A DNA stretch of 64,000 nucleotides, from the IMG/VR virus record IMGVR_UViG_3300045988_174698; one strand, written 5' to 3'. The notes under the pieces were generated by a model. The model did no database searches. It was not told the DNA's origin and worked only from the letters and a program-made list of their open reading frames with translations. How positions within the stretch are numbered: position 1 is the first letter of the stretch; each line of letters begins with the position of its first letter. Positions 1-64,000 of the stretch are shown piece by piece. The position numbers were made by a program, and so were the translations under genes. The stretch comes from a virus.

Positions 1-1761
1 ATATATCCAGAATTAGAAGAAGGGTCTTCATTATATAATTTCTATAATAAATACAATTTAATATATGAAGATATAAATGGTAATATTAGACATGGAGATT
101 TAGAAGCCAAACTTGGTAAACCTAAAGAAGCTATAAAGGCTAGACAAGATTACTTTAAGTCTAGAAAAGAAATGGCTAATATCTGGCAATCTTTTGACTT
201 AGTTAGATTTATTACCGATCCAATCTACAAACAGGAAAGTATTGAAAAATATGAACAAAATAAGGTTAATTTTAATATTTTGGAAGTAATCAGTGCAGTT
301 CCTCATTTTAGAGAAATGTTTAATGTTCTTGCAATTAACAAAAGTGTTCTTAATAGTTTATCATCTAGAAATAGGTTAGAAGATATAATTCTAAACCAAC
401 TTAGTAGGAACTTTGCTGGAGTTCGTATGGATGTAAGCAAACCACTAAATAAACTTGAAATTAGAACTATAAAAGATCAGATAGATAAGTATCTTATTAG
501 ATCTTGGATTATTAGTAAAGGAATTGAAATAAATGTTCCCGCTAGTCCTAAGAATCCAGCTCCTTATATATTAAGATTGGATAATGAAAATAATATTAAC
601 AAGTTTAGAAGTTATGTTGAAAACTACGCTATTCCTTTATTAAAGGATAAGTTGAAAAATAATAAGTTTGTTCAGCTATTAACTTTTGGACTAAGACAAG
701 GAGTTCCATTCTATAAGCTACCACTTAACATGGTTCAAGTTGATAACACTCAGAAGACTAGGGCTTTATACGAAGAAGCATTATATGCTTTTAATAACCT
801 TAATAAGGTCAAAATAACTGGTATAGATATGAACTTAGTGGATATGTTTTATCTATATAACTTAGTTGTTAATCAAGATAAATTTGGTCCTAATTCTATG
901 ACTAGGATATTTGAAGACTTAGTATCATCTGGTAATGAAGATCTTCTTATATATGATTTTAATAATTGAATTGATAGTCAAAATATTGAAGACTTAGTTA
1001 ACAGATTTAGAACAGAAGAAAATAGTATTAGGTTTAATTTAGTAGAATCAACTCCTATTGTAGATGACACAAATTCTGATATTGGATTTAAAGAAACTCC
1101 TTTAGAAGAGGATATTGAAGAGGCTCAATATGAAGAATTAGCAGATAATCCTGTTAAAGAAAATAATGAAGTAGCTGAATATTATCAAACTAACCCTTCA
1201 ACTAAATCAAAACTTATAACAATAATTAAAGAATCTAATTTAAAAGGACTTCACATAGTTACAGATTCTGATTTAGTTAATGAAGATTCTACTACTAGAA
1301 ATGCTAGGGGATTTGTGAAGAATGGTGAAATCTATATTAATGTAGATAGAGCCGAAGATGATACAGTAGTCCATGAATTTAGCCATTTATATTTAGCAGA
1401 TGCTAAAGTAAATAGTCCTAATGAATACTATTCAGTACTAAGTAGAGTTAGAAATACAGGTACTTGGAAATATATGAGAGAGATACCTGAATATCAAAAT
1501 AAAAGAGGATCTGATTTTGATGAAGAGGTTCTAGCAACTTTAATTGAGCGAGCATATAATGAGGGATTAGGAGGAGCAGATTATGATGTTGCAATAGATG
1601 CTCTGAATCTTACATCTCCAGAATTTAAATCATTTATAAAATCTGATATTCTACCATCATTAGGAGAGACATTAATAGAGAATTATAAGGTATCTCAAAA
1701 GATAGCTACACTTAAAAATAAGCTCATCAAAGATAATATTATTAAAGAGGATTGTAAATAA
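1..1761 (+). CDS. Large hypothetical protein, 5'-partial (open from position 1); one in-frame TGA at 967-969 read as sense
   Basis: Frame 1 is open from nt 1 through ORFs 172..969 and 1315..1761. The only interrupting codon is TGA. It ends with TAA at 1759-1761, overlapping the next ATG (TAATG). Confidence 0.55.
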
Positions 1762-4700
1762 TGGAATGTACATATGAAACTACAATAAACGGTAAGAAGA
1801 TAAAGTTCAGCTCCGAAATGGAGCTGGACAACTTCTTATCAAGTAAATTAGCAGATTATCAAATAAACGAATCAGATTTAACTTTTCAAATTAATCCTAT
1901 AGATAGTACTATAGAGAAGGTAAATGCTATTACAAGTAAAGTTAAAAATGCTTCTATAGAATCTGTAATTATAAATGATGATGGAGATTCAGAAACTATA
2001 CTTAAGATTCCTGACTCAATAGGTACTACTAGATTTATTACATCTAATGGGGATCCTTCTAATATGCAAAAGGAATTAGTTCCTCCTTTTAACTTAAATG
2101 ATTTCTTAAAAAAAGAAAGAGAAAGATTAAGTGCAGAAGGAATGACTAAATCTCAAATTGATTCATATTTAGAAAAGTTACAAAAGTCTTGAACTCAGTT
2201 AACTGATTATGGTACTGAAATACATTCCTTATTTGAAAGTATTATTAATAATACTACATTCAAACCAACTAATTTGAGTGAAGAACAGGTATTACGTTTA
2301 ACTGAAGAATTTAAATCCTTTATTGAAGATATTAAATCTAAATATGGTAAAAATGCTAAAATCTTAACAGAAGTTCCTATAATATCAGATAAAATTCATG
2401 AAGCATATCAATCAGAAGGAATTAAAAGTATTAATGGTAGAATTGATATGCTAGTTATTGACCAGAGAGGATTTGCTCATATTTATGATTTTAAAGTTTC
2501 TAGAAAAGAAGTAGGAATATGAGAGGATACTAGAAACATACAAGGATCAACTACATGGCACTCTACTAAAAAACGTTCTGTGGGGTATCAGTTAGGAATA
2601 TATAAGAATATTCTAGCACAATATGGCATTACTGTAGGAGAAACAAACGTTGTTCCTATTAAAATAGATCCAGAATATAATGAAGATGGAACTATTAATA
2701 AGCTAAATGATGCTTATATTGATTTTACTAAAATAAAAGTAAATCCTAATGCTCCATATACAGAAACTATAAATACTATTCTTCCAGTAAAAACATTACT
2801 TGATGATATTGATCTTATAAACTCAATTCAGGAACCAATGACTAAATTTGTTCCTAATTATGCAGTAGAAACTCAGGTACAGAGAAATACAGTTACTGTG
2901 GATAAATACATTAATAATCCTAGAATTGTACACTATATTGATGACACTGACCCAGAACGAAAGTTTGGAAAATACTGAATTTGGAATAAATATAAGAAGA
3001 ATCGTAAAGTATATGCTAAAACAGAGGAGGAACTCAGAGAAAAAGTACAAGAATTAGTAAATGAAGAAAATAAACATATTCACTCTGAAATGTCTACCTT
3101 AGCGGATACCATTCAACAAATTATTGAAGGATATGGATCCATTGATGACTTAGCTGCTGATAACCCATTTAAGTCTGATTATTGTAAAAAGATATTTAGA
3201 AAATATTTAGTAAAAAAGAGTGAAACTGACTATGGATGAACTTTTCAAAATAATCCTAAATTTATAGCTGCAGGTATATTTGTATTTACTAAGGATGGTA
3301 AAATGGAAATAATATCTGTTACTCATAATGATATTCATTCAGTTGTTAATTTAGGTCTTGGCAAATCTATTCAAGGAGCAACTAAAAAGGATAGTGATAT
3401 TGATAGTCATGTAATAATGCAAGCATCTAACGGTAATATTGACCTTGTTAAAGTTATGTGTTTATTAAATAATATGCCTGAGGTACTTAAAGGATACAAA
3501 GTTAATAAAATAGAATCACATAATATTTGAATTCAAAAAGGTACTGAGACCTATTTAGAAACTCTTTTAGATAATTTTTCTGAATTATGCAGGATACATG
3601 GTATTACCAATAATCTTACATCTCAAAATTTTGCAACAACATTAGAAGCAGCTGTAAATATAATAAGAGATACTGCTGGTGAAGAATTACTATCTCACAT
3701 GGGTAATTGAGAATTTAATTTTAGTCCTAATGATATTGTAAATGGAGTTCCATTCATCTTGCAGAAAATGGAACAACTAAGAAAATTAAAATCTGCAGAT
3801 GGCCTTCGTACTGCTTTAAGAGAAGGCAAATGAAATTTTGATGATCCTATTCAGCTAGCATATATGTTATTAGGCAGAGCACTAAATAAACTTAACGGAT
3901 ACTCTATTTATATTGAACAAGATCCTAAATTGTGAGTAAATTTTTCTAGGGAAGGATGATACACTGGTTCATATGTGAATAGTGCTAGTAACTCTTCTTC
4001 TAAAAATATTCAAACATTAAGTAAAATATTTTCAGTAGCAGAAGCTCATATTAGAAGGAAAGAATTATCATACAAACCTAGGATTAGTAAAGTAGTTAAG
4101 GCTTTATATGAATACAATCACAGAAATAGACTTATTGGAGGTGAGGTTAAGTTTTTTGATAACTTATTTGTTAAGGATACAAACGGTAATATAGATAAAT
4201 CATTTAGACTAAAAAATCCTTCAGATAGTAGTTTGGCTAAGGAAGAATCTGACTTTATTAAGATGTTTCTAGAGATAGTAAATGATTTTAGATTTGATGG
4301 TAATCAAAGTAAAATAGCTAAAGCCATTGAAGACGGTTCTTACTATGAAGTTCCTGTTTCTATGGGAAGTACATCTACTCAAATCCACAATAAAGGATAT
4401 AAACAAGCCTTTACATCTAAATATAATGAAGCTTTAAACTTTCTAAAACTTCTTCCTGAACAAGAGCAACAATTTAGGGAATCAAAAGGAGAGCCAAAGG
4501 TATATAATAAATATAGATTAAATGGACTTAGTAGATCTGATTTAATTGAAAATTATGGGATAGATGGTCTAGAAACTCAACTTGAAGATTTGCTATTAAA
4601 TGTCATCCATACATACACAATGGAAGAAGTAATGAATGAATATCTTCCCAGACTTCAAGGTATTAAGATTGCCTTACAATATCAAACTGGGATGTTTGGA

Positions 4701-6161
4701 GTAGTTACTGATCATGTTTTAGAATATATAGATAAATTTATTGATGCTAACGTTTATAGTAAGCCTATTATGGCTAAAGAATTGCAAGGTGCATATAAGA
4801 TGTTATCTGTAGTTAAATCAATAACAACAGCTACCGCTCTCGGTTTAAATCTTAGATCAGGTATTCGAGAAATGATGCAGGGAATGTGAATACATCTAAG
4901 TAGAACTATGGCAGAAGCTTATGGAAAGGATCAGTTTACTAAAAAAGATGTTGCTAAAGCATGGGCTATTATATTTAAACAAAGTGTTAAAGATATTAAT
5001 ACTTTAACATTAATTGATGCCTTAAATGTGGATTATGGAATGGCTAACGCCGATCCCCATCAAGTCCAAGAGAGACTAAGTTCATCTAAAGCAGGTATTA
5101 AAAATTTAGATTCTGATTCACTATACTTCTTTAATAGAGTACCTGACTCGTATCATAGAATGGGATTATTAATTGCTAAGATGTTGCATGACGGATGTTA
5201 TGAAGCTCATAGTATTGTCAATGACCAACTTATCTATGATTTCAAAAAGGATAAAAGATTTAGTTTATTGTCTGATTCTAAAGCTGATAAGAATTCTATA
5301 GAGTATAAAAAGCAACATGCTTTATATACTGCTATGAGAGAACAGTTTAATAGAGAAGGATGAAATATCCAAGATGGAGATGATTTACCACGGGCTTATA
5401 CTATTCAAGAAGGAACTAGTATTAAATCGTTTGCGGAATTATGCTTTGGGCACTATGATAAAAGTACGCAAATGCTTATGAAACAAATGTTTCTAGGTGC
5501 TATGATTCTACAATTCAGAACATTCCTATCAGCTAAGTTTGAACAGTGGATATTAAAGCCAGATACTTATAATCAAGGTCAATACACTGAAAAATTTGAT
5601 GAAAATGGAGTAAGATATATTCGTATATTTACATTTGATGAAAAAGGAATTCCATCTGTTAGAATCGGTCTTGAAACAGAATTAAAACCTGATGATATTT
5701 GGGAACCTTACATTGAATGGCAAGGCAGATTTATGGAGGGAATTGCATATTCAATAATTAGTTTTGGAAAAACATTATACAAGTTAGATTTTAATGGTTT
5801 TAAAGAACTATGAAAAAATCCAACTAAAAGAGCTAATTTCTATTTATTCTTACATGATATGATCTGAATGTCTATACTTATGTGAATTGTTAAAGCTCTA
5901 TTTTTATCTGAAGAAGAAGATCTTGGACCTGTGGGTCATTTAGTAGGTACTTCATTATATACATCTTTTTCTGACGGGCCAATTACTAATATTATGGCTT
6001 CAATGTTTGGAGATTTAAATCCACCTATGCATAGCATAGTTGTGAACTTATATAGACAAACTTCTGGAATAATTACAGGAGATGTTAATTTATTTGATGC
6101 TGGTGTCAATTCATTTGGAGCATTAAATAGTTTAAAATATATTGGTGATCAGTTAGAATAA
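1761..6161 (+). CDS. Very large hypothetical protein (~1466 aa) with >=8 in-frame TGA codons; internal PD-(D/E)xK-like segment (IDMLVID...IYDFKVS)
   Basis: The ORFs starting at 1761, 2274, 2580, 3303, 3975, 4908, 5472 and 5931 all share frame 0 and are separated only by TGA. It ends with TAA at 6159-6161, followed by a strong terminator. Confidence 0.55.
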
Positions 6162-6228: not shown

Positions 6229-6735
6229 TTACTTGGGAATTAACACCATGTTCATTCTTTTACCTTCCAACTTTGGTTTAGATTCAACTTTAGCAATATC
6301 TTCAAGATCCGTAGTCAAACGTAACAAAAGAGATTCTCCCTGATCTTTAAACATAATTTCTCTACCTTTAAACATTATGTATGCTTTTACTTTAGCTTTT
6401 GAATTGATAAATTCTCTAGCATGTTTTAGTTTAAATTGATAATCATGTTCGTCTGTCTGTGGACCAAATCTTAGTTCTTTAACTATAACTTTCGCTTGAC
6501 CTGCTTTTAAGACTTTTTCCCGTTTTTTCTGTTGGTATAGAAATTTCTGATAATCTTGAAAAATACATACTGATACTTGGTTTTTATTGTTATCAATATA
6601 TACTGATAGTTCAATTAAATCAGTATTAGTATCTACAGCCTTCCTTAAAGCATCAGAAAGAGAAATTAACTCCCCGCTATCTTTTATTCTGATAATCTGA
6701 GAGTTAATTTCATAATTTATAGAGTAATTTTTCAT
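6229..6735 (-). CDS. infC: Translation initiation factor IF-3 homolog
   Basis: The C-terminal domain VKELRFGPQTDEHDYQFKLKHAREFI...IMFKGREI...KVESKPKLEGKRMNMVLIPK matches bacterial IF3 (KEIKFRPGTDEGDYQVKL...RFRGREM...MIMVLAPK). The N-terminal domain also aligns (DYQKFLYQQKKREK vs DYGKFLYEKSK). Confidence 0.85.
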   Translation of the reverse strand: MKNYSINYEINSQIIRIKDSGELISLSDALRKAVDTNTDLIELSVYIDNNKNQVSVCIFQDYQKFLYQQKKREKVLKAGQAKVIVKELRFGPQTDEHDYQFKLKHAREFINSKAKVKAYIMFKGREIMFKDQGESLLLRLTTDLEDIAKVESKPKLEGKRMNMVLIPK

Positions 6736-6903: not shown

Positions 6904-6937
6904 TTTTATATATTTTAAAATTAATTATTTAAGTATT

Positions 6938-7620
6938 TTAGAAGCTAAATCTGAAACTTTATTAAATAGATTCTCGATACTTCCATCATTATTAATGATA
7001 TAATCAAATTTATTATTTTGAAATAGTTCTATTACTTCACTTTCACTACGATGAGACCCTGGAATTTGATTTCTGTCTATATAAATAACTATTCCATTAT
7101 TATTTTTTACTTGTTCATATTCATTAATAAATCTTAAATCTGATATAATAATATTATCTTTATCTAATAAAGTTCTTAGTACTCAGAAGTTATTTCCAAA
7201 ATATTCTCTTATTATTTCAGTTCCAAATATTTGTAAAAGTTGTCTAATACTAATATAATAGTTTGATATAACATTTAACTTTTTTGATTTTATCATTCTG
7301 CTTAGTTGCTTATCTGTGATCATTAGATTATTATCAGGAAAAGCTGTAATATGGATACTCTGTAGGTTAATATATCAATTCTCCTTGAAATCTCTATCAT
7401 TAAATTTTTCAACTGGAACATTAATTAAAACAGATAAAGCTTCCTTCATTGAAGAGGCGAAACTTGTGATTTCATATTTAGATACAATAAAATCATATAC
7501 TAGGCAATACAACCAATATTGTCTCATTCATTTGGGAACTGAAAGACAATATCTTATCATATGGGCAGTTAAATCCTTACCAGAATTTTTAAGCCCAGAA
7601 ATTGCTATAATAGTCTTCAT
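6938..7620 (-). CDS. T4 gp1-like deoxynucleoside monophosphate kinase (3 TGA codons)
   Basis: MKTIIAISGLKNSGKDLTAHMI matches T4 dNMP kinase MKLIFLSGVKRSGKDTTADFI. ISDLRFINEYE and GSIENLFNKV also match. The TGA in NNF[TGA]VLRTL aligns with Trp in T4 (MYWVKLF). Confidence 0.8.
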
Positions 7621-8839: not shown

Positions 8840-11462
8840 TTAAATAAGTTTTGCAGCTAATTTTGGGTTAAGTAATAGTTTATTACATTTACCAGGATAG
8901 TGTTTGTTTAGTGTTCTTACTAGGCTAAAGAGTAGATCTTCAGTTAACAATAACTTATCATTATCAACTATCCTAAGAATACGATCTATAATTAGGTCCA
9001 TTTTACACCCAGGTTTACTAAGATATAATAAGCTATAATTTATAAATCTAGTGGTAATTACAGAAGCTATATCGGCACGATACTTACCTTTATCATATAA
9101 TTGATTCTCAAGTATCCTTTTAATATCGTTCCAATCCGTATTAACTAGTTCTTCTGGGGAAGGAAGTTTATCTAATTTATTAGCTATGAATGTAGTAAAT
9201 AATCCCCCAACAATATCATCACTATCAAGAAAACATCCAGAAGCTATTTGCAGAATAAAGGATAAATTCTCAGGTTTAGACCAATCATCAATACTAGAAA
9301 TAGTATTAATAAACATAGTATAATTGCGAGCATTAATTTTAGACTGCCTAGATTTTGAACGGTCCATTAATTCATCACTATAAAGAAGCATAAAGTTAAT
9401 CGCCTGATTATTATACCCTTTTTCCTCGGCATATTTAGCCCAATCATATTTATCAAACTTAATATTAAAGTTTAACATACGGGTTTTTATAGCCTCATCA
9501 ATTTCTGTTACATTAAAATCTCCCCCTTCAGGATTAGCTGTTAAAATAACAGTACTATTAGGAGGTAATTTCCAAGAGAAATATTCTTGTCTTGATATAA
9601 GCTCCATAATAGCAGCCAATACAATTGGAGAGCTACGATTCACATCGTCAAGATTCAAAATTGTAGGTTTACTTAGATCAATACTTTTTATCCATTCTGG
9701 AATTGCATAGCTCATTCTAGTTTCCTCAGATATTTCCCAACCTGCTTTACTATAACTTTCTATAAGTTCTGCAGTTATCCATCTACATTCATCATTTTTA
9801 CATACATAGTGCTCTTTAATTGGCCACCCGCAAATTTCTCCTGGGTCTGAAATTTGACTAAGGTTTTTCTTGATGTAATTAGCACCAATTTCACTAGCTA
9901 TTTGTTCGATTAAACTCGTTTTCAATTTTGTTATCTCTAGAGCTTTTTATCTCTAGATTCTATATCTTCATATTCGATATAGTTCAGCATATCTTTTCAC
10001 CTCTAAAAATAGTAAGGTGGAGCACACTCGTGGGAAAATTATATTCTGTACAACAGGTTCATTTCCTATGCGTTGCACTGTAGCAAATCATTTAAATCTG
10101 CTATTAGCTCAGGATTAGCATCTCAGCCTTCCCTGAATTTGCGCTCTAATAATTTTAAAGATTTCTCTTTAAAACGGCAATCTTTGATTTTATTAAATAT
10201 TTGATATTTTCTATCTAAATAAATTGTTGATTTATAATATAGGTGATATAAGTAGGCAGTTGCCTTTATTCCCGAAAAACTAAATGCAAAAGTAAAATCG
10301 CTATGATTATTAGAAAACAAATGTCTAGGCTCTAAGTAGCTTACCATTTTACTTAAAAATTCTTTTGCACCTAAACAGCTTATTTCTGGTTTATCATATA
10401 ATCCTAATGACCCATCACCATCAAAATATCCTCTAATAAAATGTCTTATTAAATCTTTAGACTTAAAGATATTTTCATTAGGAAATTTTAAAGTCAGTGA
10501 CTTTTTAGGAGTACATCCGTAAGAATTTAATGTTTCTCATAAGTGTTTATTTGTTAGAGCAAATCTACATCTAAAATATTGCTTATTGTTACATATAATA
10601 GATGATATTTTTACTCTATTACCTGTTACTTGAAAAAACTTCTGTAATTTATATAAATGTTCCACATCAGATCCTTTTAAAGAAACTTCAAAATTATAAT
10701 GAGGTTTTCCATTTTTAGGAATTGAAGCAATATATCCATCAGCAAAAATAAAACCCAATCAATAAGCTTTTTCTTCGGTATCTATAATATCAAAAATGTG
10801 TTCATTAAATTTTAGCATATTTTGAGTATTAATAACTGGTATTCCAAGTTTCTTTAATCTAATAGAAAAATTGCTTCGACTAAATTTATATTTATTACTT
10901 ATTTGTGTTAGGCTATAACCATTACTATACATCTGCACTGCCTCTTCAAAGTAAGTATCTAAATTACTCTTTCGTATATTAATGTTATTATTATGAAGAA
11001 TAGTGGAAATAGTATTTCTGGATACATTATATAGTTTAGCTATATCACTACAAGTTTTACCCAAATTATATAGTTTACAAATATTAATTTTTTCAGATAA
11101 TATTAATTTACTACACTCTCTACAAAGAGAATTTCTATTAGCTACACGACTAACTGTAGTAGGATGTACTTTACAAATTTTACTTATATCTTTAATCTTA
11201 TAACCTTGATTATATAAATCAATAATCTTATTTTCTAAATCATTACTAATTTTTTGCATAATATTTAAATTTTAAATAAATTAAATCTATGCAAAAGTAA
11301 TAATATAAAACAATTTAATCAAATATTTTATAATAAATTACCTATACCAGGAAGTGAAGTAAGTTGAACACTTATTGGAAATTCTCCTCTTTCTTGGAGA
11401 GATCTATTATTGTTTATAATATATTTTAAAATAGGTTTTATTTCTCCTAATGTTAGTTCCAT
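8840..11462 (-). CDS. MoxR-like AAA+ ATPase, split by a group I intron: exon 1 at 11462..11340, exon 2 at 9922..8840 (~401 aa spliced)
   Basis: Exon 1 ends ...SLPGIG and exon 2 starts KTSLIEQIASEIG..., which reconstitutes the Walker A motif GIGKTSL. The ILTANPEGG sensor region is MoxR-like. The unspliced read-through hits a stop after 3 codons. Confidence 0.7.
9923..11339 (-). mobile_element. Group I intron (family R, copy 1) with LAGLIDADG homing-endonuclease ORF, inserted in the Walker A codons of the MoxR ATPase
   Basis: The 5' exon ends in T (GGT|) and the intron ends in G (...ACAAAATTG|). The 3' core (10130..9935) carries an S-like element GAAGATATAGAATC and blocks shared with four other loci. 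Confidence 0.65.
10123..11259 (-). CDS. Intron-encoded homing endonuclease: N-terminal repeated HTH modules plus double LAGLIDADG (GFIFADGYI, GYFDGDGSL); 3 TGA codons
   Basis: ORFs 10759..11259, 10537..10758 and 10123..10347 are in frame and joined by TGA (the TCA at 10759-10761 and 10537-10539 on the plus strand). Confidence 0.7.
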
Positions 11463-24438: not shown

Positions 24439-24474
24439 ACTTATATCTTAAATAAAATATTAGTTACAACGACT

Positions 24475-32312: not shown

Positions 32313-32395
32313 ATTTAAAAACTAAATTTATTTTTATTTCTGATATCTTTTACTTCTGTATCTTTTACAGTTGCATCTTTTATTTCTTTTTCTCT

Positions 32396-44778: not shown

Positions 44779-44788
44779 AACTTATTAG

Positions 44789-50608: not shown

Positions 50609-50609
50609 A

Positions 50610-51152
50610 CTATAGTTCTAATGCCTTATTATAGCAGTACACAGCCAGTTCCTTCTGGGTTAACTTATTATAATCAGCAAATTCAGCCCCATGGTCCTGT
50701 AAAAGCTTTGCAATATACTGTAGTTCGTGTTTTTTTAGTTTGCTAAATTGAGTGGCCGAGAATTCTGCGACCTTCTTATCAAGAGCAATTAATTTGAGGA
50801 ATACTTTTCCAAATGGTTTATTATTAAATTTATTAATATATACCTTTTGGTCAATATTATCCTCTACTGGGATAGCTTTAGGTTCAGGGTTAGGAACAAC
50901 CTCGTCATATGGGATAATCATAAATTCAGGTACCCATATGCCTATAGATAGAAAATATGGAATATCTGGGTCATTCTTATCTACATCCTCAATAACAGCA
51001 ACATTACCAAAATAGGGAAAATCAGAAAATAAGACATATTTCATGTCTTTGTTACAATAAACACCTTCTAAGTCAGGTGCTTCCTTGAGTAGATTATCCT
51101 TAAGTAAACAATCAAGATTTTTAATGATAACTTTGTCTCCTTGTTCAAACAT
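50610..51152 (-). CDS. Hypothetical protein
   Basis: ORF track only. Confidence 0.3.
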   Translation of the reverse strand: MFEQGDKVIIKNLDCLLKDNLLKEAPDLEGVYCNKDMKYVLFSDFPYFGNVAVIEDVDKNDPDIPYFLSIGIWVPEFMIIPYDEVVPNPEPKAIPVEDNIDQKVYINKFNNKPFGKVFLKLIALDKKVAEFSATQFSKLKKHELQYIAKLLQDHGAEFADYNKLTQKELAVYCYNKALEL

Positions 51153-51166
51153 AACTATTTTTATTT

Positions 51167-52243: not shown

Positions 52244-52416
52244 TTTTAATCTCTCTTAATTAGTTTATTTTTCTGTTCCTCAGTATCCCTAAATTTTTTT
52301 ATTTTTCTTTTCTTATTTAGACGAGCAATCTCTTCCTCGTACCTATTATATTTATCCAATTGATTACCTCGAATAAATTTACCCATGATAAAAAACAGAA
52401 TTTCAATTTTGATTTA

Positions 52417-53199
52417 CTATTGAATCTCTAAAGTACCTGGTTCCAGTCCAAGTTCTTTCTCGACTTCTGCGATTGTTTTCTTTACAACCTTATTCTTTAC
52501 TTTTGGCCAAGCAACATCCATTTTTGTGTAATCACTAAGTTTAAAACAGTGTGGTGTTGGAACAAAAATCTTCTTAACTTGGTAGAAACTCCCATTTTTA
52601 GGGGAATTAAAGCATCCACTTAAATAACCCTTAATTTCTCCTTTATTGTTAACATAAACAATAGCTTTAGAAGAAATAATAAATCCAAAATACTCTTGAT
52701 CTTTAACTATTAACTGTACTATTCGCCCAGGTAAAAACTCAGACTTAAAATCATTATTAAGATTAGAATCTACCTTATTATCCTCAACCTTATTTTTTTC
52801 TTTACCTAGAATCTTTTCAAACTGGTCTATAATAGATATGTCATTTGATTTTAATTCAGGTGATTCAAGTAATTTTAATAGATTCTTTTCTGATTTTAAA
52901 ATAATATCACTATATAGAGCAAGTTTATTCTCTTCTATATCATTAATACCTAACTCTTTAAGGATAGTGTTGTCATCATCTGAACAGAAGATATCACTAT
53001 CTCCAGTAAGGTAATGAATATTCTGATTATATGTAACAACATAATAAGATCTTTTATCTGTATCAATTAAGATCTTATAAGGGTGTCCTGAAAGTAATAA
53101 AGATATACTTACCTTAGGATAGTTTAATGTATATCCGTATCTACTTAAGATAAACAAAATGGTATTTAAACTGTTACCATTATATAATAAATAACGCAT
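52417..53199 (-). CDS. Hypothetical protein
   Basis: ORF track only. Confidence 0.3.
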   Translation of the reverse strand: MRYLLYNGNSLNTILFILSRYGYTLNYPKVSISLLLSGHPYKILIDTDKRSYYVVTYNQNIHYLTGDSDIFCSDDDNTILKELGINDIEENKLALYSDIILKSEKNLLKLLESPELKSNDISIIDQFEKILGKEKNKVEDNKVDSNLNNDFKSEFLPGRIVQLIVKDQEYFGFIISSKAIVYVNNKGEIKGYLSGCFNSPKNGSFYQVKKIFVPTPHCFKLSDYTKMDVAWPKVKNKVVKKTIAEVEKELGLEPGTLEIQ

Positions 53200-53252
53200 A
53201 ATTTGATTTTTTTGTTCTTTTTAGTTAAAAAACAGTAACAAGTGAAGGCTCA

Positions 53253-54185
53253 CTATTCTTTTACTTCTATAATTTTATATACAGAATTTTGAGTATGAAA
53301 ATGATTTTTATCTACGATTTTAGTTACAGGTGAGGTTGAGAAGCGAAATCCAAGACAAGCTCGAAACCCTACAGTTATAGGTAGACTTAAATATCCTTGA
53401 GTAAGGTACCCTTTATTGATTCCATTTGGATGATGACCTGGCTTATAATTACAAGTATCAGTATCTTCTAACTTTTCAATCTGAACTTTAGTTTGTGCAG
53501 GATAACTACACACCTCATAATATAATTCACGTACACTCCTCAAAGTTTCCTCATGGTGATCATCTGATTCAGGTATTGATCCTTCACAATCACATTTCTT
53601 TAATAGTAGTAATGCTTCGAAGTCAATACACTCTAGATTATTAGCTAACCTTAGAATAGCCGACTTGATATCTCTTTGTTTTAAAATATAAAGAGGTTGC
53701 ATGTGACACCTTACCAAAGAAAGAATAGCTCTTTTGTACTGAGGTTTAATATCAGAAATATATGTATCTAAAATATGTTCAGCAATTGGAACTCCTTTAA
53801 TTGCATGGTCCTTACAGTGGTAAAGTCCATCTTCTCCCTTTTTTGTAGTAACTGGTTTACCTATATCATGTAATAGAGCAGCAAAGATTAGAATATTTCG
53901 ATAGTCCATGTCTTGAAAAAGTACTTCATTACTGTTTTCAATATGCTTCAACATACATTTTGTAACCATACAAGTATGGGTGAAAGCGTCTCCCTCTTTA
54001 TGCCAAAGTATATTCTGAGGAGTTTCTGACAACGCTTTAAATTCAGGAATTTTTAAAAGTTCATCCCAAAAGACAATATTAGTTTTTGGATCATAAATCA
54101 TATTATATAATAAGATTATAAGAGATAATAGTAGTAACAAATAAAATAGCTGAAGATTTTGCAAAATGTATAAAAGTTGAATCAT
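53253..54185 (-). CDS. HD-domain phosphohydrolase with N-terminal hydrophobic segment
   Basis: ILIFAALLHDIGKP is an HD motif. Confidence 0.55.
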   Translation of the reverse strand: MIQLLYILQNLQLFYLLLLLSLIILLYNMIYDPKTNIVFWDELLKIPEFKALSETPQNILWHKEGDAFTHTCMVTKCMLKHIENSNEVLFQDMDYRNILIFAALLHDIGKPVTTKKGEDGLYHCKDHAIKGVPIAEHILDTYISDIKPQYKRAILSLVRCHMQPLYILKQRDIKSAILRLANNLECIDFEALLLLKKCDCEGSIPESDDHHEETLRSVRELYYEVCSYPAQTKVQIEKLEDTDTCNYKPGHHPNGINKGYLTQGYLSLPITVGFRACLGFRFSTSPVTKIVDKNHFHTQNSVYKIIEVKE

Positions 54186-55006: not shown

Positions 55007-55642
55007 GGTAAAATTTTCTGAGTTATTCTTTTATAGTTATTTAATATTCCTAAGATGTTTGCTCGACCTACAGGATTTGCAGATTGACTTGCAAACTGTG
55101 GAAGGACATATCCTTCATCTATACATTTATCTACAATATACTTGGCTATATCGTATCCAGATTTTTCCTCTCCTAAATCATGATCGAGACAAATTGCATA
55201 AGGTCATTCTTTTTCAAGGAAGTCAATAGCTTCTTGATAAGACTGAGCCCATACAACTTTACAATTTCTGCCAATTGGACTAAAATTCATCCAATCATCT
55301 TCCATTGGATTACGAGCATCATCTATCCAAAAAAGTGTTTTCATAATCATCTAATTCTTAAATGAGAAAGTAAATTAAAAACTATTAATATAATACAAGC
55401 CATAGTTGGAATAAAGTTTAAAGGAGTCCAAATGAGTATTATAAAGACAAAGCTACTAATATATTTATCCTCAGTATAGTATAAATACATATCTCCTAGA
55501 GTAGTTCCTTCTTTAGATTTTATCCTCCAATAAACGTAGAGAATAATATGATTAATAATTATACATACAAACCAGCAATATACAAATTCCATAATTATAT
55601 TTTATTTAAATGAAATTTTCACTACCTAATTATTTATAAAAG

Positions 55643-55714
55643 TATCCCCACCTTGATTCGAACAAGGACCTTTCGGGTAGAAGCCGAAGATTCTCTCCAT
55701 TGAACTATGGGGAC
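55643..55714 (-). tRNA. tRNA-Arg (anticodon UCU)
   Basis: Cloverleaf: the acceptor is GTCCCCA/TGGGGAT, the anticodon arm is TTCGG-CTTCTAC-CCGAA, and the T-arm is CCTTG-TTCGAAT-CAAGG. Confidence 0.7.
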
Positions 55715-57926
55715 TAAATAAATAGTTTATCTTACTATTTATATAAATATTATTATTAAAGTTTTTGAATATTCTTCATAAAAACTCTAGTAATAATATC
55801 TATATTCATCTTACATTGCTCAAATATATCTATTTTATAAGAATCTTTCAGTGGGCTATCCTCTTTGTATGGCCAATGTGCAATTATAAATTCATATTCA
55901 CATCTAGCCCAGTATTGATACATTAATTTTCTCGTTACAAAATCCTTACACTGCTCAAAATTTTCTTTAGAAGGTTTATCTGCTTTATAAGCATCATTAT
56001 ACTTTCTAACTAGGTAAGGCATTATATCATAATAGGTTGGTTTATTTTTATTATATTCTAACCATAATACTTTGAATGGTATCATAAATTTTACTATTAC
56101 AATTTTTCACCTAAATAATTAACTTCTATAACATTTAAATAGTTAACTTTAAATGGATAATCATCAACTATAGTATTATACTGTATACAAACACTTCTTT
56201 TATCTGTATCATGAAAGCAAGATACAACATGATTGAAATTGATATTACAGTTATATCCTTCACCTATAATATTAATAATATTTATCTTTTTCATATTGTA
56301 TTTATGTAAAAGCTCTTAGTAATAAAATCTTAACTTAAAATTCTAAGTGGTTTTTATACTTGGCAGCACATCGAAGAAACCTATATGGATCCTTTATAAA
56401 AATGCGTTTTATATTAGGATTTAAATGGCTAAGATCTGGGTAAAAACAAAAAAAGCCAAACTTACCTGTATCATCTAAAACAACAACAGAGCTCTGGATT
56501 TTATTACCTTTCATGTATATCTGAACGTCGAAATATGGCCTATACCCAAGTTTAACTAGACTGCTGTAAAATAAAAGGAATTGTTTAGATAATATTATAG
56601 TATATGGATATTCTTTCATTATAGTAGTGAATTAATTATTAAGATAGCTTTTTTACTGTCATAACGACCCTTGTAATCAGATTTAGGTATAATATTCAAT
56701 ACCTTATTGACAATATTCTCACCACTAGTAGCATATAATGCTCCACTTGGATGATAAAAATCATGTCGTAAATCTACAACAATTAATGTACGCTTCATAT
56801 AGTTAAATTAAGCATAATAAAATTTGAATAAAGTGTAGACTTTGATCAATATAATATGAAGTAAAATCCTTCATATACTTTTTATAAAGTCCTCTACACT
56901 TCCAGTAATCAATAGCATAATGTCCAACTAGTAACATTATTAATTTCCAAATTGCAGCTAATCCCAAAAAGTGTAATGCAATATAAATACCTAACGCCCA
57001 AATTGCACAATGTACAAACAAGACATAATTATTTTCACATTTATACTTCTTACAAAACTCATCTTGCAACGGATAGTCTAAAACTAAATTTAGAAAGTAA
57101 AGTATAATAAAATTTATCATTATCTAATCTTTATTTTTGAGAACAAACTTCCAATATCTAAGAAGATTTGTATTATCAATACAATAGTATTTACTACAGG
57201 AACCCATATTAAAAGGAAGATCCAATCATTATCTTGATCTACATAAAAAGAATAAAGATCACCTATTGTGCTTCCACACTTGTCTTCTTCAATCCAATCA
57301 AAATACAGGGAAACGTGTAAATAAACAACTCCTATTAGATAAATACCTAAAATAATTAAAAATGTATACATATTAATCCAGTTTTTCCCAGCATTCTTGA
57401 TCAAAATTCCAATGTCTAATATCACAAATATTAAACTCGAAACATAATCCAAGAATGCCGATATTAAAACAAAAGCCTGCATGATCCCCTTTATTATTAT
57501 AACTAATATGGAAATCAAGCAAGCCAAATGTATTGATGTTTATAAACAAATAATAACAAATACCAAATAGTTGAATATCAAAGTCAAAAAATTTTGATAA
57601 CTTAAAGATTTTAAATCTAATAGACATTTCTAATGATTTAAACTCTCCTATAGGGTGCACAAACACCCACCACAAAAAATCTAATTTACAAAGCTTCATA
57701 TTTTTCTTAAATTAGAGTAATAAGCGGTTATAGACTATACTTCTAATTTGGGTTAATAACTAATATTATTGTAATACTTTATATCTTCAATATAAGTTTT
57801 CTGTGTATCTCCAGTAGGCCCTATCATAATATTAGGTTTTATTGTTCCGCATGATATATTAAGTATTACTAAGACTATTATAACTATTTTTACTATTGTT
57901 TTCATCTTTATGTTATTAATGTTTAG

Positions 57927-57999
57927 AGTAGGTAACAGGATTCGAACCTGTGATATAGCTTTTGCAGAGCTGGGCCTTAACCAACTTGGCGATACCTAC
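57927..57999 (-). tRNA. tRNA-Cys (anticodon GCA)
   Basis: The acceptor is GTAGGTA/TACCTAC, the T-arm is CAGG-TTCGAAT-CCTG, and the anticodon loop is CTGCAAA. Confidence 0.65.
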
Positions 58000-58004
58000 A
58001 TGTG

Positions 58005-58095
58005 CGGTAAGGGTGGGATTCCAACCCACGCAGCGATTTCTATACGCTCTAATGCATTTCAAGTGCATCCTCTTAAAGCTCTTGAGTACCTTACC
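58005..58095 (-). tRNA. tRNA-Ser (anticodon UGA), class II with long variable arm
   Basis: The acceptor is GGTAAGG/CCTTACC+G, the anticodon arm is ATGCA-CTTGAAA-TGCAT, the T-arm is GTGGG-TTGGAAT-CCCAC, and the variable arm is 22 nt. Confidence 0.65.
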
Positions 58096-58133
58096 AAATT
58101 TATCTATCTATAAACTTTCTAGTAAGTTATTTG

Positions 58134-58206
58134 CTGGACCGATAGGATTCGAACCCACGTTACCCAAATTAACAGTTTGGTGCTTAAACCACTCAGCCAC
58201 AGTCCA
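58134..58206 (-). tRNA. tRNA-Asn (anticodon GUU)
   Basis: The anticodon arm is CCAAA-CTGTTAA-TTTGG, the T-loop is TTCGAAT, and the acceptor is TGGACTG/CGGTCCA (one G-U pair). Confidence 0.6.
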
Positions 58207-58358
58207 GTACATTTTATATATTTATTACAGATAACTCTGCAAAAGTATTTGCAGAAATATTATAAATTAATTAGTCGAGAATGATAGTAATGCTCTATCC
58301 CCTAGAAATCCCAAATTTCTCGTGCTACTTCCACACCCCATTCTCGATAAACTATCCT

Positions 58359-58592
58359 TTATTCAAGGATAGCGTTTAATTTTGCAAGAACACCTTCGTT
58401 TTTCTTACGAATGTTTTCAAGAGCTTCTTTTTCAGCTTGAGCTGCTTTGATTTCCTCGTCTCTTGCTGCAATTTCTAATTCTGCAGAAGCATTTACTTCT
58501 TTAAGACCATCAATTGCAGTTTTGAAAGCATTTAAAACATTGTCTACTTTCTTAGACAGATCTACAGATGTTTTACTTTTTGAATTAAACAT
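58359..58592 (-). CDS. Small coiled-coil protein
   Basis: ORF track only; the sequence is charged and helical. Confidence 0.3.
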   Translation of the reverse strand: MFNSKSKTSVDLSKKVDNVLNAFKTAIDGLKEVNASAELEIAARDEEIKAAQAEKEALENIRKKNEGVLAKLNAILE

Positions 58593-58639
58593 GTTTAATA
58601 GTTTTTTAAATTAATGCTGTGAGGAGATTTTTGGGACCC

Positions 58640-58711
58640 CCAATAATAGTGAACCATATGAGACTCGAACCCCTCTATTTCCTTGCAAAGGAAATGTGCT
58701 CGCCTTTACAC
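58640..58711 (-). tRNA. tRNA-Ala (anticodon UGC); T-stem and acceptor contain G-U pairs or mismatches
   Basis: The anticodon arm is TTTCC-TTTGCAA-GGAAA, the T-loop is TTCGAGT, and the acceptor is GGGCCAT/ATGGTTC. Confidence 0.5.
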
Positions 58712-58941
58712 TACATGGCCCAAAATACTTAAAGTTTAATACGAAATTGTCTTATTTTATTACATATTTTACAACGCTGTATATAAACTTTTTCAACTTT
58801 AACTGGGCGACTTTGATAGTCATTTTCAAACACCTTTTTTAATTTTTCTTCAACTGTCTCCCAATCATGTACATGAAATTTCAATTCAAACCATTTCTTT
58901 ATAAGTTCTAACATATTATAAAGTTTTTAATAAAATTTTAG

Positions 58942-59024
58942 AGCCTCCTGTCGGACTCGAACCGACGCGTTCAAATGAAGACGGATTACAAAACCGTTGC
59001 AGTCGCCGCTGTGCCAAGGAGGCT
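58942..59024 (-). tRNA. Class-II-like tRNA (83 nt, 15-nt variable region); the anticodon loop TTTTGTAAT is readable as UGU (Thr) or GUA (Tyr)
   Basis: The acceptor is GCCTCCT/AGGAGGC and the T-arm GTCGG-TTCGAGT-CCGAC is perfect. The anticodon stem is ACGG/CCGT. Confidence 0.5.
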
Positions 59025-59998
59025 TATAAACACTATCGTAGTTTGCACGTCTGATTTTTATTGCCACAGAAACTCCATACAAATGATCAATTTATATGTT
59101 AAGAGTTGTTACGCCGCTAATGTCAAATTTAGAAATAACTTATAATGACATAAATTGGTTATAGTTATCCTTGTATCCTATAGAAGTATTCACAAGAAGC
59201 TCGCCATGCATGCTTCTACCAGGCATTGGCACCATAAAGTCATTTCCATATATGTTAGTTAAAACACTTAAATATACTTCTGGAGCAGGAAACATTCCTC
59301 ACTCAAATTTAAGGTAAACCTTATTGTTATAGTCTCTAGCGTTTCTAAGACTTTGTATCTTATTTGGAAATGTAAGATTACCAAATGACTCTGTGGAGAG
59401 TACATTATATCGTTGTCGTAGCTCTTGATATTTTTCTCTAAGATATAAAAGTCTAGATGTGTTTTCCTTAGAAGAATCATAACATTGTATTCTTGTTTTT
59501 ACAGCCAGTGCTTCTAGTTTAATTAAGTGAAGCTGGTGCATAAACTTTTGTCTCTCAACTAGATCATCTGGAACATTATCAAAAGGACATATATCTATAA
59601 AGATCCCTTGGTTAAAGGTAAAATGACCTTCTAAATCCTTTTTGTGAATACATGTTGTGTCACTTCTTCTTAACTTCGTACAGCAATAAAAGGTACTGTC
59701 TGTTCAGTCATTTTGAACAAAATATGGATAATTCAACTCTTTAACTGCACACTCTAAAAATCTATCATAGTCTGTTCTAGGCATAGCAATATCAATATCA
59801 TCGTCCCATGGAATAAATCCACCATGTCTGACAGCACCAAGTAATGTTCCTCCATCTAAATAGTGCTTCAAATGATATTTATCACAGATATTTTTAAACT
59901 GTCATAGCAAATCTAGCTCAACTCCTCAAAGTTCTTTTCTTTCTTTAGACACCAAGAATCCATTTTTTACTTCTGCTTCAAAAAAGTTATCTGGTAAT

Positions 59999-60679
59999 TT
60001 AATATTTAAGTTTACCATTAAATAAAAATTTAGCCAACTCTAAATCATCAGGACTTGTAATTTTAAAATTCATAAGTTCTCCCGAGATATATAAGCATTT
60101 ATTTCCATTATGCTCATATAAGTCAGGTAAAGTCTGATAATTATCTATATTTTTAATCTTTGTAATTATATTATAAAGGCTTCTAAGCATAAAAGTTTCA
60201 GGAGTCTGTAAGATAGCAATTGGCTCCGTTCTTACTCCAGGAACATGTAACGAACTAAGATCTTTTAAAGTGCTAACTGTTGGAATGTATGGAACAACAG
60301 CCGAATTATTAGAATCACAAGAAGACAAACATCTTGTAATTAAATTTGAAGTGAAAAAAGGTCTAACAGAATCATGAAACATAATTTTTTCAATAGAAGG
60401 ATAGTAAGTCATTATGTATTCAAGACCAGCAATTCTAGATCTTAAGCATGAGTACCCTCCTTCTATAATTTTGATATAAGAAAATGGAAAAAGCTTTCGA
60501 AGAATAGGAATATATTCAGGTAGAGTAACTATAACAATTATGTTAAACAGTCTTAACCTAACAAACTTTTCAACAGTCAAATATACTATAGGATGTCCAT
60601 TAATATCTATAAACTGCTTAGGAATATTCATTCCTACCCTAGTTCCTTTTCCAGCAGCATTAATAACTAAGGCATTCAT
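59999..60679 (-). CDS. IspD/TarI-family cytidylyltransferase
   Basis: The N-terminal segment NAAGKGTRVGMNIPKQFIDING and MFHDSVRPF resemble IspD (AAGxGxRMG...PKQYL; VHDAARP). Confidence 0.6.
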   Translation of the reverse strand: MNALVINAAGKGTRVGMNIPKQFIDINGHPIVYLTVEKFVRLRLFNIIVIVTLPEYIPILRKLFPFSYIKIIEGGYSCLRSRIAGLEYIMTYYPSIEKIMFHDSVRPFFTSNLITRCLSSCDSNNSAVVPYIPTVSTLKDLSSLHVPGVRTEPIAILQTPETFMLRSLYNIITKIKNIDNYQTLPDLYEHNGNKCLYISGELMNFKITSPDDLELAKFLFNGKLKY

Positions 60680-60882
60680 ACACTTAATCTTATACTCTTT
60701 TTCTTTTAATACTAGTTAATACACTAAAATAAAGATTCATTTCTATTCCTAAAGTAAAGGATAGTACATAGTACTATTACCACAAACCAGATAAAAAGAA
60801 ATAGTAATATTAGACAGTTAATTAGTACTGTTGCCATAGTATTATTTATTATATGTGAGAAATATTTATTTAATTTTAATAG

Positions 60883-60957
60883 TTGCTCGTTAAAGATTCG
60901 AACTTTAACTTTCACGTTCAAAGCGTGACGTGCACAAACCAAGTACACCAACGAGCA
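60883..60957 (-). tRNA. tRNA-Gln (anticodon UUG)
   Basis: The acceptor is TGCTCGT/ACGAGCA, the anticodon arm is TCACG-CTTTGAA-CGTGA, and the T-arm is TAAAG-TTCGAAT-CTTTA. Confidence 0.6.
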
Positions 60958-61824: not shown

Positions 61825-61845
61825 AAGTTAAAAAGATTTTTGTGT

Positions 61846-62262
61846 GGCTGATGAGAATTGAACTCATGTCCATTCAACTATTAATAATAATTTTATTTAC
61901 ATGCTAGGTTATTTTATTCTCCTATTCCGAAAAATAACAAAACGTATCAGATAGTTTTTATCTTATCTCCTACAACTTATCTGAAATAACTCGGTTCTAT
62001 AATAGTAGTTAGTAATGATTAACTTACATCATCTGCATTAATCTATACAGAAAATCTTTGTCTATTATTTCTCCAGACTTGGATAGCTTAAGCTGCAAAA
62101 GCTACTTGAGCACGCATAGGAGTTGCAAGAGGCATAACCTTGTTAGCCATCTTACGTACAGTGTTCTTAGCGTTTATTTTTTGGTCCAGTTGTTAAAGAA
62201 GTTATACCAGCTCCTGCATGAATTGTTATCAACTATCTTGAATGTCAAAAACCTGGCAGGCC
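61846..62262 (-). ncRNA. ssrA: tmRNA (ssrA)-like RNA; the predicted tag peptide ends ...AQVAFAA*
   Basis: The 5' region is GGGCCTGCCAGGTTTTTGACA (compare GGGGCUGAUUCUGGAUUCGAC). About 92 nt downstream is CAAAAAATAAAC-GCT AAG..., with a tag ORF ending GCTTTTGCAGCTTAA (E. coli GCUUUAGCAGCUUAA). About 250 nt further is the T-arm ATGAG-TTCAATT-CTCAT plus CAGCCAC-A. It lies in a ~700-nt ORF-free gap. Confidence 0.55.
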
Positions 62263-62580
62263 CAAAGACAGGGCAGTTTATACTTATACCCTAGAAGTGG
62301 TCCATAATAGCTAAAGTGTTTAATGCTCTAATTATATAGCAGCGACTAGTATACTGTTATACTTTTCTTGTAACTTCAAGAACTATTACTAAAACTTCAA
62401 TGTGAAGTTCCTAAAAGCCACTTGAGTATTTTTTGGGTTCACTCAAGAATACCGTGTTTTATTGTCGGGATCAAACAACCAAACTACCACCTTTCTATAT
62501 ACAAAGGCAAACTCATACTATCTGGCGTAACCCGTTACTATTATTTATATACCGCTAAGTAACCTAATGCGGTTTACTTT

Positions 62581-63628: not shown

Positions 63629-63668
63629 CTTTAGTCTTTTATTTTTATCTATTACTATTATTCTAGTC

Positions 63669-63840: not shown

Positions 63841-63999
63841 GTAGGCTTTTCTGCTTTGTAATTAGGTAAGTATAGAGCATTATGCCTTACTCTACGGTAA
63901 ACAGTTCTATACGAAAGTTCTCCTGTCTTTTTATCAAAAACAGGGTTGCCTTCTTCATCTACTTTAACTTCTTTAAAGGGCATTGTAATAGCCTTCATT
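63841..63999 (-). CDS. Small hypothetical protein (53 aa), start near the window end
   Basis: Manual translation reads MKAITMPFKEVKVDEEGNPVFDKKTGELSYRTVYRRVRHNALYLPNYKAEKPTC*. Confidence 0.3.
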
Positions 64000-64000
64000 T

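Follow-up and report, generated by a model that had tools for sequence, protein, structure and literature searches.

The stretch of virus DNA examined here, 64,000 nucleotides of IMG/VR record IMGVR_UViG_3300045988_174698 (hereafter the window, meaning all 64 kb), is, we hold with high confidence, part of the circular genome of about 167 kb of a Zeta-group crAss-like phage (Crassvirales; zeta_12 of Yutin et al. 2021) that reads UGA as tryptophan (Trp) genome-wide and that is a recoded phage of a standard-code host. The recoding of TGA to Trp is not new: for this lineage it is already on record (Yutin et al. 2021, PMC7886860). What the genome provides is, first, a clean example of a known phenomenon, late-gene-biased stop-codon recoding in crAss-like phages; and, second, a sharpened form of the gap raised by Yutin 2021 and Borges 2022, namely how UGA is decoded when the phage supplies neither a suppressor tRNA nor a tRNA-Trp. 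The lineage is abundant, its genome is complete and its host is likely a member of the Prevotellaceae, and it is therefore a reasonable test case for UGA decoding. There is also a more utilitarian side: read with the standard table, the genome loses about a fifth of its coding capacity and all its large virion and replication genes break up, and annotation pipelines meeting this common gut phage need table 4.

The case for reassignment begins with the reading frames. Open reading frames (ORFs) in the window were called mechanically under four codes, with greedy tiling. With TGA as a sense codon there are 89 ORFs, nearly all on one strand, at a coding density of 0.885, with a mean length of 213 aa and a maximum of 1466 aa; under table 11 there are 106, at a density of 0.755 and a mean of 152 aa; and reading TAG or TAA as sense brings no comparable gain in density or length in the window. 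We also built a circular composite genome of 161,939 bp from same-species contigs of several strains, whose overlaps are 98-100% identical at successive joins and 95% identical at the circular closure. Here, on passing from table 11 to TGA as sense, density rises from 0.689 to 0.878 and mean ORF length from 156 to 264 aa, with a longest ORF of 2562 aa. In window and composite, then, density and ORF length are restored only with TGA as sense. An earlier reading of the window, made from its letters alone (the original prediction), had proposed such a re-calling under alternative codes as its check, and it passes. In detail, however, it overreached, for it held that every long gene is divided by TGA, into two to eight pieces with nothing but TGA between them. 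Large ORFs such as 1761-6161 are indeed joined, but TGA occurs in 30 of the 89 window ORFs and in 12 of the 19 that are at least 300 aa long, and a run of ten genes (45296-54185) has none; the 1466-aa ORF is cut into 15 pieces; and the genes for ribonucleotide reductase (RNR), DNA polymerase and a DnaB-like helicase are also split in other ways.

The window has 86 TGA and 160 TGG codons in frame, and its ORFs stop at TAA (67) or TAG (22); for the 180 ORFs of the composite the corresponding stops are 136 TAA and 44 TAG. Over the 1466 codons of ORF 1761-6161 there are 14 TGA and no TAA or TAG, an outcome with a chance of about 10^-38 from base composition. Twelve same-strand gene pairs in the window overlap by a single base, and TAA and TAG are therefore working stops. 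A genome-wide search for relic TGA stops followed closely by a back-up stop revealed no excess: the last five codons of the composite ORFs hold 7 TGA where 6.2 are expected, and the last 15 hold 16 where about 18.6 are expected (the latter figures derived from per-position counts). These overlaps and the lack of a terminal TGA excess bear out the clean TAA/TAG termination claimed originally. Nor does the base after TGA differ from the base after TGG (chi-square p = 0.16), and there is thus no read-through-type context on the 3' side. The absence of a TGA excess near ORF ends and the ordinary 3' base together argue for a reassigned codon and not for context-dependent leakage. TGA works as a terminator nowhere in the genome. 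As a separate observation, two small overlapping ORFs of the late arm (described below), at composite 90069-90529 (17578-18038 of L051; L-numbered labels are loci on same-species or related contigs), both end TGA-TAA, and table 11 would stop each of them one codon earlier.

To identify the residue without bias, an X was placed at each TGA before alignment. Against RNase H structures in the PDB, the three TGA of the phage RNase H fall on W, W and W/K/F, with W at two of them in all or the best alignments; one of these codons, in MDL[TGA], had been missed originally and matches 'DLW'. In the T4 dNMP kinase (1dek) a W is aligned with NNF[TGA]V, and the three Trp alignments first put forward, one in dNMP kinase and two in RNase H, hold. 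For the XPB-type helicase, two of the five TGA fall on W of archaeal XPB (PDB), and the rest on F/P, H/Y and V/K. MT835470.1 encodes, in the standard code, a homologue of the 1466-aa protein that has W at 3 of the 14 TGA positions at an identity of only 24.5%, and a PDB search with the LicD protein gave no alignment that covers its TGA positions. In the 755-aa lysin, a TGA lies within the Glucosaminidase-domain stretch 'GLESAWG' (Pfam PF01832), the W of which we take to be conserved across the family.

In an alignment of the primase with seven relatives, TGA swaps with TGG at three conserved columns, which hold TGA or TGG in relatives of 72-45% identity and F, Y or C in a relative of 32% identity. 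Codons were also compared over all alignable genes with five relatives from IMG/VR. In the relative of 64% identity, window TGA faces TGA 18 times, TGG 5 times and other codons 5 times, and window TGG faces TGA 6 times. In three standard-code relatives, which show no in-frame TGA in the aligned parts, the residue opposite window TGA is W in 11 cases, F in 6, Y in 3 and G in none (binomial p ~4e-12). Across the five relatives Gly is faced once, and most conserved columns hold TGA or W. Moreover, TGA and TGG together make up 13.3 per 1000 codons of the composite, which is a normal Trp content; TGG alone would give half. On this comparative evidence (Trp-facing alignments, swaps with TGG and a normal combined content), TGA is Trp, as originally predicted, it falls on the Trp positions of homologues, essentially never on Gly and not on Cys positions, and the genes that contain it are not pseudogenes.

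Two other explanations are weighed by the same data. Code 25 phages exist in human microbiomes (Borges preprint, 10.1101/2021.08.26.457843), and TGA might be glycine, as in Gracilibacteria and Absconditabacteria, or some other non-Trp residue. With one Gly match across five relatives, W in the PDB alignments, and F, Y and L, the usual substitutes for Trp, as the other residues at TGA, we leave this essentially no chance; code 25 itself is excluded by the alignments to relatives and to PDB structures. The tabulation of residues at TGA, by which the original prediction proposed to tell Trp from Gly, is headed by W in the standard-code relatives. The other explanation, that TGA-interrupted genes are pseudogenes, assembly errors or subject to occasional leaky read-through, earns barely any more credence. 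UGA is the leakiest stop codon, and the failure to find a suppressor tRNA would suit leakage; yet up to 25 TGA in essential late genes are too many for a useful yield, and TGA lacks the 3' context of read-through. Pseudogenes and assembly errors are refuted by recurrence, open frames and codon conservation: the TGA-containing proteins are unchanged in hundreds of independent assemblies, their frames run without TAA or TAG over up to 2562 codons, and the TGA positions are conserved or swapped with TGG in relatives of 50-70% identity. Genuine decay, which the original prediction had considered, is also at odds with the gain in density with TGA as sense.

As for the lineage, contigs of 163-168 kb that encode the exact window proteins come from the human gut, in hundreds of assemblies, and most gene calls on them already apply table 4. 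The Zeta phage is very common among human gut metagenomes. No near-identical phage record was found in GenBank, where megablast of 24 kb against the phages returned small patches only, and tblastn with the primase matched 113 records, mostly of crAss-like and Bacteroides phages. The GC content is 29.1% in the window and about 30% in the composite. Same-species tiling of the genome runs into contig OLVX01000015.1, to which the tiles are 93.5-99% identical at the nucleotide level, and Supplementary Data 1 of Yutin et al. 2021 (PMC7886860) enters OLVX01000015 and OLRF01000054 under "TGA|w", zeta, zeta_12; the tRNA count given is 8, and the suppressor column is blank. By this published assignment of OLVX01000015 and the identity of the tiles, the window would fall in the Zeta clade. 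Several hallmarks of the group were found. The crAss-type virion (muzzle) protein is represented by a same-species protein of 1554 aa (composite 131965-136629, outside the window) that matches Pfam crAss_MUZ at 101.5 bits (cut-off 27), a family also seen in relatives. The Zeta replication block is recognized by Pfam, with a DnaG-type primase, DnaB and SNF2/SF2 helicases, an AAA ATPase, Thy1, dUTPase and RNR. The 163-168-kb contigs lie within the 145-192 kb of Zeta genomes, in which introns, inteins or homing endonucleases occupy core genes, and RNR, polymerase and DnaB are split here. Zeta phages are described as genomes of 145-192 kb with TGA reassigned to Trp or TAG to Gln and with PolB in fragments that contain TGA codons, recoding and suppressor tRNA being only imperfectly matched (PMC7886860).

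TGA is not spread evenly over this genome. The composite has two arms. One of them, on the minus strand of the window and on to about 82 kb, carries tRNAs and many small genes besides those for replication and nucleotide metabolism. The other, late, arm ends in the window at 6161 and carries a lysin, a PD-(D/E)XK nuclease, collagen-like fibres, the capsid region, the 1554-aa crAss_MUZ protein and giant proteins, as well as large ORFs that are putatively terminase and portal, assigned by position and size only. In the late arm 228 of the 342 Trp codons are TGA (0.67), against 98 of 291 (0.34) in the other (chi-square 67, p = 2.5e-16); it is rarest in the promoter-proximal half of the replication arm and absent at 45.3-54.2 kb. 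Local GC content at third codon positions (GC3) is rejected as the sole cause of this bias, since the difference between the arms persists once GC3 is controlled for (likelihood-ratio chi-square 45.3). For the other A/G-ending codon pairs, the A-ending share is 0.77 in the late arm versus 0.75 in the other. In the block at 45296-54185 all 24 Trp codons are TGG, with none TGA; the other A/G pairs there are 73% A-ending, which would predict about 17 TGA if the choice were neutral. As many as 95 of the 180 composite ORFs contain no TGA, as sense or as stop, and therefore read identically under both codes, while late genes carry up to 25. This is the pattern of the Borges model, with the recoded codon enriched in structural and lysis genes and early genes compatible with the standard code, the timing being taken here from gene content. 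A code-4 host would not impose avoidance of TGA, and a standard-code host is thus favoured.

A dual code in blocks, with TGA a stop in early genes and sense only in late ones, has been reported for crAss-like phages (PMC7886860; Mgcod preprint), and TGA-free blocks are present in this genome. We nevertheless consider it very unlikely. The TGA-free genes all end in TAA or TAG, so that TGA is simply absent there and is not a stop; the terminal-codon counts given above (7 versus 6.2 and about 16 versus 18.6) lack the signature of TGA plus a short tail; and replication genes of the same arm have many TGA.

The best clue to the host is a phage-encoded translation initiation factor, IF-3, which is 53-57% identical, over its full length, to the IF-3 of Xylanibacter, Prevotella and Hoylesella. 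Its best 80 matches among 185,579 species-representative genomes are all Prevotellaceae or Bacteroidales, in a scan that took in only genomes with which the query shares an identical word of 8 residues. From an index-free HMMER search, ten of the nearest IF-3 clusters were looked up, and two of these carry organism names, Prevotella sp./Hallella mizrahii and a Vicingaceae bacterium. The phage protein is without the C-terminal extension of about 60 residues found in Prevotellaceae IF-3, and some infC genes at the bacterial loci end in TGA. Those loci average 49% GC against 30% for the phage, which fits a phage tRNA set for A-ending codons. Known and predicted hosts of the Crassvirales are Bacteroidota (PMC7886860, PMC10136315). 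From these similarities the host is probably a standard-code bacterium of the Bacteroidales, family Prevotellaceae.

The original prediction had left two scenarios side by side, a Mollicutes-like code-4 host and a recoded phage of a standard-code host; the Crassvirales affiliation, the Prevotellaceae-like IF-3 and the avoidance of TGA favour the second and disfavour the first. If the host were natively code 4, whether Mollicutes-like or another bacterium with UGA as Trp, no phage recoding machinery would be needed, and one would readily understand an AT-rich genome of 29-30% GC with neither tRNA(UCA) nor tRNA-Trp in the composite, in which TGA never serves as a stop; a long tag on the transfer-messenger RNA (tmRNA), at 27 aa and ending AFAA, would be in keeping as well, being presumably like the tags of Mollicutes. 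Such a host is improbable all the same. The phage belongs to the Crassvirales, whose known and predicted hosts are Bacteroidota (PMC7886860, PMC10136315), and the IF-3 is closest to that of Prevotellaceae. TGA is strongly avoided in part of the genome (0 of 24 where about 73% is expected; 34% in one arm versus 67% in the other, with GC3 controlled for). Among sister Zeta phages the code is either standard or has TAG as Gln, read by CUA suppressors, and the phage tRNAs decode A-ending codons, as expected with a host of higher GC.

A standard-code host raises the matter of the decoder. The tRNA block of the window (Table 1) runs on beyond it with Met and Leu(UAG), to which some strains add a second Met and Leu(UAA), for a phage total of about 9-12 tRNAs plus the tmRNA. 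ARAGORN, at default and relaxed settings, found no tRNA(UCA) and no tRNA-Trp in any tile or in the 161,939-bp composite; Rfam likewise found neither in the window and six late-arm tiles by gathering score, or in part of the window, L007, L022 and L025 by E-value; and ARAGORN with introns allowed or thresholds relaxed gave implausible extra tRNAs only, none with a UCA anticodon. The phage genome thus shows no tRNA with a UCA anticodon to be charged with Trp. No release-factor or tRNA synthetase domain appeared among the Pfam-scanned proteins, which take in about two thirds of those of the late arm, and the scanned proteins hold no sign of a phage code-change module (a suppressor tRNA with or without an aminoacyl-tRNA synthetase plus release factor). 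The look beyond the window for tRNA(UCA) and release factor 2 (RF2), which the original prediction had suggested, therefore turned up neither, in the composite and in the Pfam-scanned proteins.

Several curiosities among the RNAs may be recorded. The Thr(UGU) tRNA at 58941-59023 (-) is 83 nt long and has a long variable arm, unusual for a Thr tRNA, and a weak tRNA-like element with a UGG anticodon at 58274-58346 (-) is seen only with relaxed ARAGORN settings. A relative of 50% identity, on a 174.5-kb contig (L095), has two adjacent tRNA(CUA) amber suppressors at 15422-15572, and closer relatives have a 72-nt tRNA with a UAG anticodon and no long variable arm, odd for Leu (L025 9661-9732 and L026 2427-2498). 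The tmRNA tag, AKNTVRKMANKVMPLATPMRAQVAFAA, was predicted by ARAGORN in the L007 (10909-11330) and L008 copies; a single base change in the 3' acceptor strand, at 61847, sets the window copy apart from these, and for that reason ARAGORN misses it.

What, then, would read UGA? Our leading candidate, tentatively, is a suppressor tRNA that is non-canonical or encoded by the host, that receives its Trp from the host tryptophanyl-tRNA synthetase and that current detectors miss. Possible, at somewhat lower probability, is the host tRNA-Trp(CCA) after a phage-induced change, for example neutralization of RF2 and/or modification of the tRNA. Minor and equal chances go to a host that natively reads UGA as Trp and to something else. 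The course of infection would follow the temporal-switch model of code change (Yutin 2021, PMC7886860; Borges 2022, 10.1101/2021.08.26.457843): the ordinary apparatus of a standard-code, Prevotellaceae-type host would first translate the code-neutral genes, UGA would then become readable as Trp, and its decoding would permit expression of replication genes and especially of late genes. Without a suppressor tRNA, one route would be to reprogram host tRNA-Trp(CCA) by anticodon or D-arm modification, and another would be to remove RF2 activity. Candidate agents for such a switch could be TGA-free early genes: the cluster for amidoligase, glutamine amidotransferase (GATase) and COOH-NH2 ligase, the HD and cREC proteins, IF-3 and the tmRNA. 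We consider it doubtful that the phage converts UGA into an efficiently read Trp codon in a standard-code host of Prevotella type with no suppressor tRNA at all; if true, phages would have a way of switching the genetic code that has yet to be described for them.

A number of points weigh against our view of the genome as that of a recoded phage in a standard-code host. The genome-wide search was run on a multi-strain composite (95-100% identical at joins) and not on the window's own genome, and no decoder of UGA was found in the composite or the tiles. The early and late labels were drawn from gene content and strand. TGA-rich genes for primase, helicase and RNase H lie among the TGA-free genes, and the partition is therefore a gradient and not a clean switch. 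In part, the TGA-free blocks could have been imported recently out of standard-code genomes; at 44-52 kb the GC content is slightly raised. Lastly, the link to the host is indirect, through the ancestry of IF-3.

Splitting of core genes is a further feature of this phage (Table 1). The RNR gene has two TGA, one in each ORF as called. Its exon ends in U and its insert in G, as in group I introns; at E <= 0.5 Rfam recognized no such intron anywhere in the window, the RNR junction included. Two other strains, L010 and L012, have a longer insert at this junction, plus a further 1.2-kb insert downstream. The pieces of the DNA polymerase match no Pfam family at E <= 0.001, and the polymerase label is taken from the original prediction; the enzyme is presumably of family B, with the motifs VYVYDIEIFPN, DIDVA and NTDG and with the split lying within motif A. 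The pattern fits the fragmented PolB with TGA of Zeta phages (PMC7886860). In the DnaB-like helicase the interruption consists of a LAGLIDADG endonuclease ORF (33430-34122, 3 TGA) and an HTH ORF (34196-34621); the inserted endonuclease ORFs thus have TGA codons of their own. Elsewhere in the same species, upstream of the capsid-region genes, Rfam recognizes group I introns at 18982-19180 and 20358-20578 of L168 (66 and 70 bits), adjoining NUMOD/I-HmuI-type endonuclease ORFs.

At the end of the late arm, window ORFs 172-1761 and 1761-6161 belong to the giant-protein "transcription block" of crAss-like phages, and same-species loci upstream have ORFs of 1850-2562 aa. A DYDID motif lies in the 2052-aa ORF of L043 (composite 153999-160157), a giant ORF with no Pfam match. 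In the strain closest to the window (L027 963-6515), the giant, putatively RNA-polymerase-like ORF is broken at the DYDID site and ends in '...GSDLDKLSMFK' and a stop; disruption of giant DxDxD RNA-polymerase-like genes has been described for Zeta phages (Yutin et al. 2021, PMC7886860). On the minus strand of the window, 45296-50608 encodes an amidoligase_2 protein, a class-II GATase, a phiEco32-type COOH-NH2 ligase and a peptidase C26, with genes for an IMPDH/GMP-reductase-like protein and an HD protein after them. All of this cluster is TGA-free, its GC is slightly higher, and it could be a system for nucleotide, base or peptide modification. Within the tRNA block, at 59140-60679 (-), genes for a LicD-family protein (4 TGA) and an IspD-like nucleotidyltransferase suggest a modification activity of phosphocholine or ribitol-phosphate type.

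Table 1. Features of the window, with positions in the 64,000-nucleotide stretch
Feature	Position	Strand	Details
Late-arm end	1..6161	+	3' part of 755-aa ORF (172-1761 as called, 1 TGA) and 1466-aa ORF (1761-6161, 14 TGA, 6 TGG)
Translation initiation factor IF-3	6229..6735	-	Pfam IF3_C 109.5 bits, IF3_N 34.2 bits; 0 TGA
dNMP kinase	6925..7620	-	Pfam DNMK; 3 TGA
Free-standing LAGLIDADG/HTH homing endonuclease	10066..11259	-	Pfam HTH_7, LAGLIDADG_3; 3 TGA
DNA polymerase	16328..18662	-	N-terminal piece 17631-18662 (4 TGA, ends '...IDIDVA'), C-terminal piece 16328-17095 (0 TGA), 535-nt gap
SF1 (Dda-like) helicase	22174..23562	-	Pfam AAA_30, AAA_19, UvrD_C_2; 1 TGA
Ribonucleotide reductase	24460..27000	-	Exon 1 26209-27000, exon 2 24460-25902; Pfam Ribonuc_red_lgC 307 bits in 2 stretches, and TSCPD
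Intron-like insert in ribonucleotide reductase	25903-26208	-	306 nt; splits active-site motif NPCG / EQPL...CNL, junction in frame
346-aa ORF	27577..28617	-	3 TGA, 0 TGG; no Pfam match at E <= 0.001; homologues used in codon comparison
DnaG/Toprim primase	29282..30319	-	Pfam Toprim_2; 6 TGA, 1 TGG
DnaB-like helicase	32315..34860	-	N-terminal piece 34663-34860; Pfam DnaB_C, LAGLIDADG_3
SF2 (XPB/SNF2-type) helicase	35514..36737	-	Pfam ResIII, Helicase_C; 5 TGA
Further endonuclease ORFs with TGA	39334-40164, 44205-44780, 63251-63628		Pfam matches include HNH_4
RNase H	41156..41626	-	Pfam RNase_H; 3 TGA, 0 TGG
Code-neutral ten-gene block	45296..54185	-	0 TGA, 24 TGG; all stops TAA or TAG
tRNA block	55642..60957	-	Arg(UCU), Cys(GCA), Ser(UGA), Asn(GUU), Ala(UGC), Thr(UGU), Gln(UUG); ARAGORN and Rfam
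tmRNA	61842..62263	-	Rfam RF00023 52.3 bits (gathering score 47)

Among known systems, the Zeta "TGA|w" phages of zeta_12 (OLVX01000015, OLRF01000054; PMC7886860) are of the same lineage, with genomes of 166-168 kb from the human gut, TGA reassigned to Trp, 8-12 tRNAs with no suppressor, and polymerase and other core genes split by TGA-containing introns or homing endonucleases; phage_15 and phage_16 (Ivanova et al. 2014) are grouped with them. No essential difference sets the present phage apart from them. Yutin 2021 (PMC7886860) described reassignment mostly in late genes, whereas in the present phage TGA is frequent in replication genes too (primase 6, SF2 helicase 5) and the bias is about two-fold and not all-or-none. 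Lera phage, or "Echekvirus" (PV725988; Int J Mol Sci 2025, PMC12386605), is likewise a crAss-like phage of the Zeta group; its genome, about 180 kb long, was annotated with table 4 and is rich in mobile elements; about 18% of its ORFs have TGA, mostly structural and lysis genes, and its TGA sit at the Trp positions of homologues. Unlike the present phage, with its 9-12 or so tRNAs and no suppressor, Lera has 26 tRNAs, among them a tRNA-SUP-TCA and a seemingly unused tRNA-SUP-CTA (PMC12386605). Nor is it a close relative: the best GenBank phage matches to the primase, in a collection without PV725988, are only 44% identical.

The code-4 gut phages of Borges et al. (Jade, Agate; 10.1101/2021.08.26.457843) share the change of TGA to Trp, the predicted standard-code gut hosts, the bias of recoded codons towards structural and lysis genes and early genes that the standard code can read, and a TGA suppressor was detectable in only 35% of code-4 phage genomes in that study. 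They differ in belonging to other clades and infecting mostly Firmicutes, and the Jade phages differ further in having, by the lysis genes, a "code-change module" (suppressor tRNA, tryptophanyl-tRNA synthetase, RF1) that has no counterpart in the Pfam-scanned parts of the present genome. Phages of Mycoplasma and Spiroplasma, whose hosts are natural code-4 bacteria, are similar in being AT-rich, in reading TGA as Trp and in needing no suppressor tRNA of their own. In such phages, however, one would expect TGA to be spread evenly as the Trp codon of choice; part of the present genome selectively avoids it, and the phage is crAss-like, with a Prevotellaceae-like IF-3.

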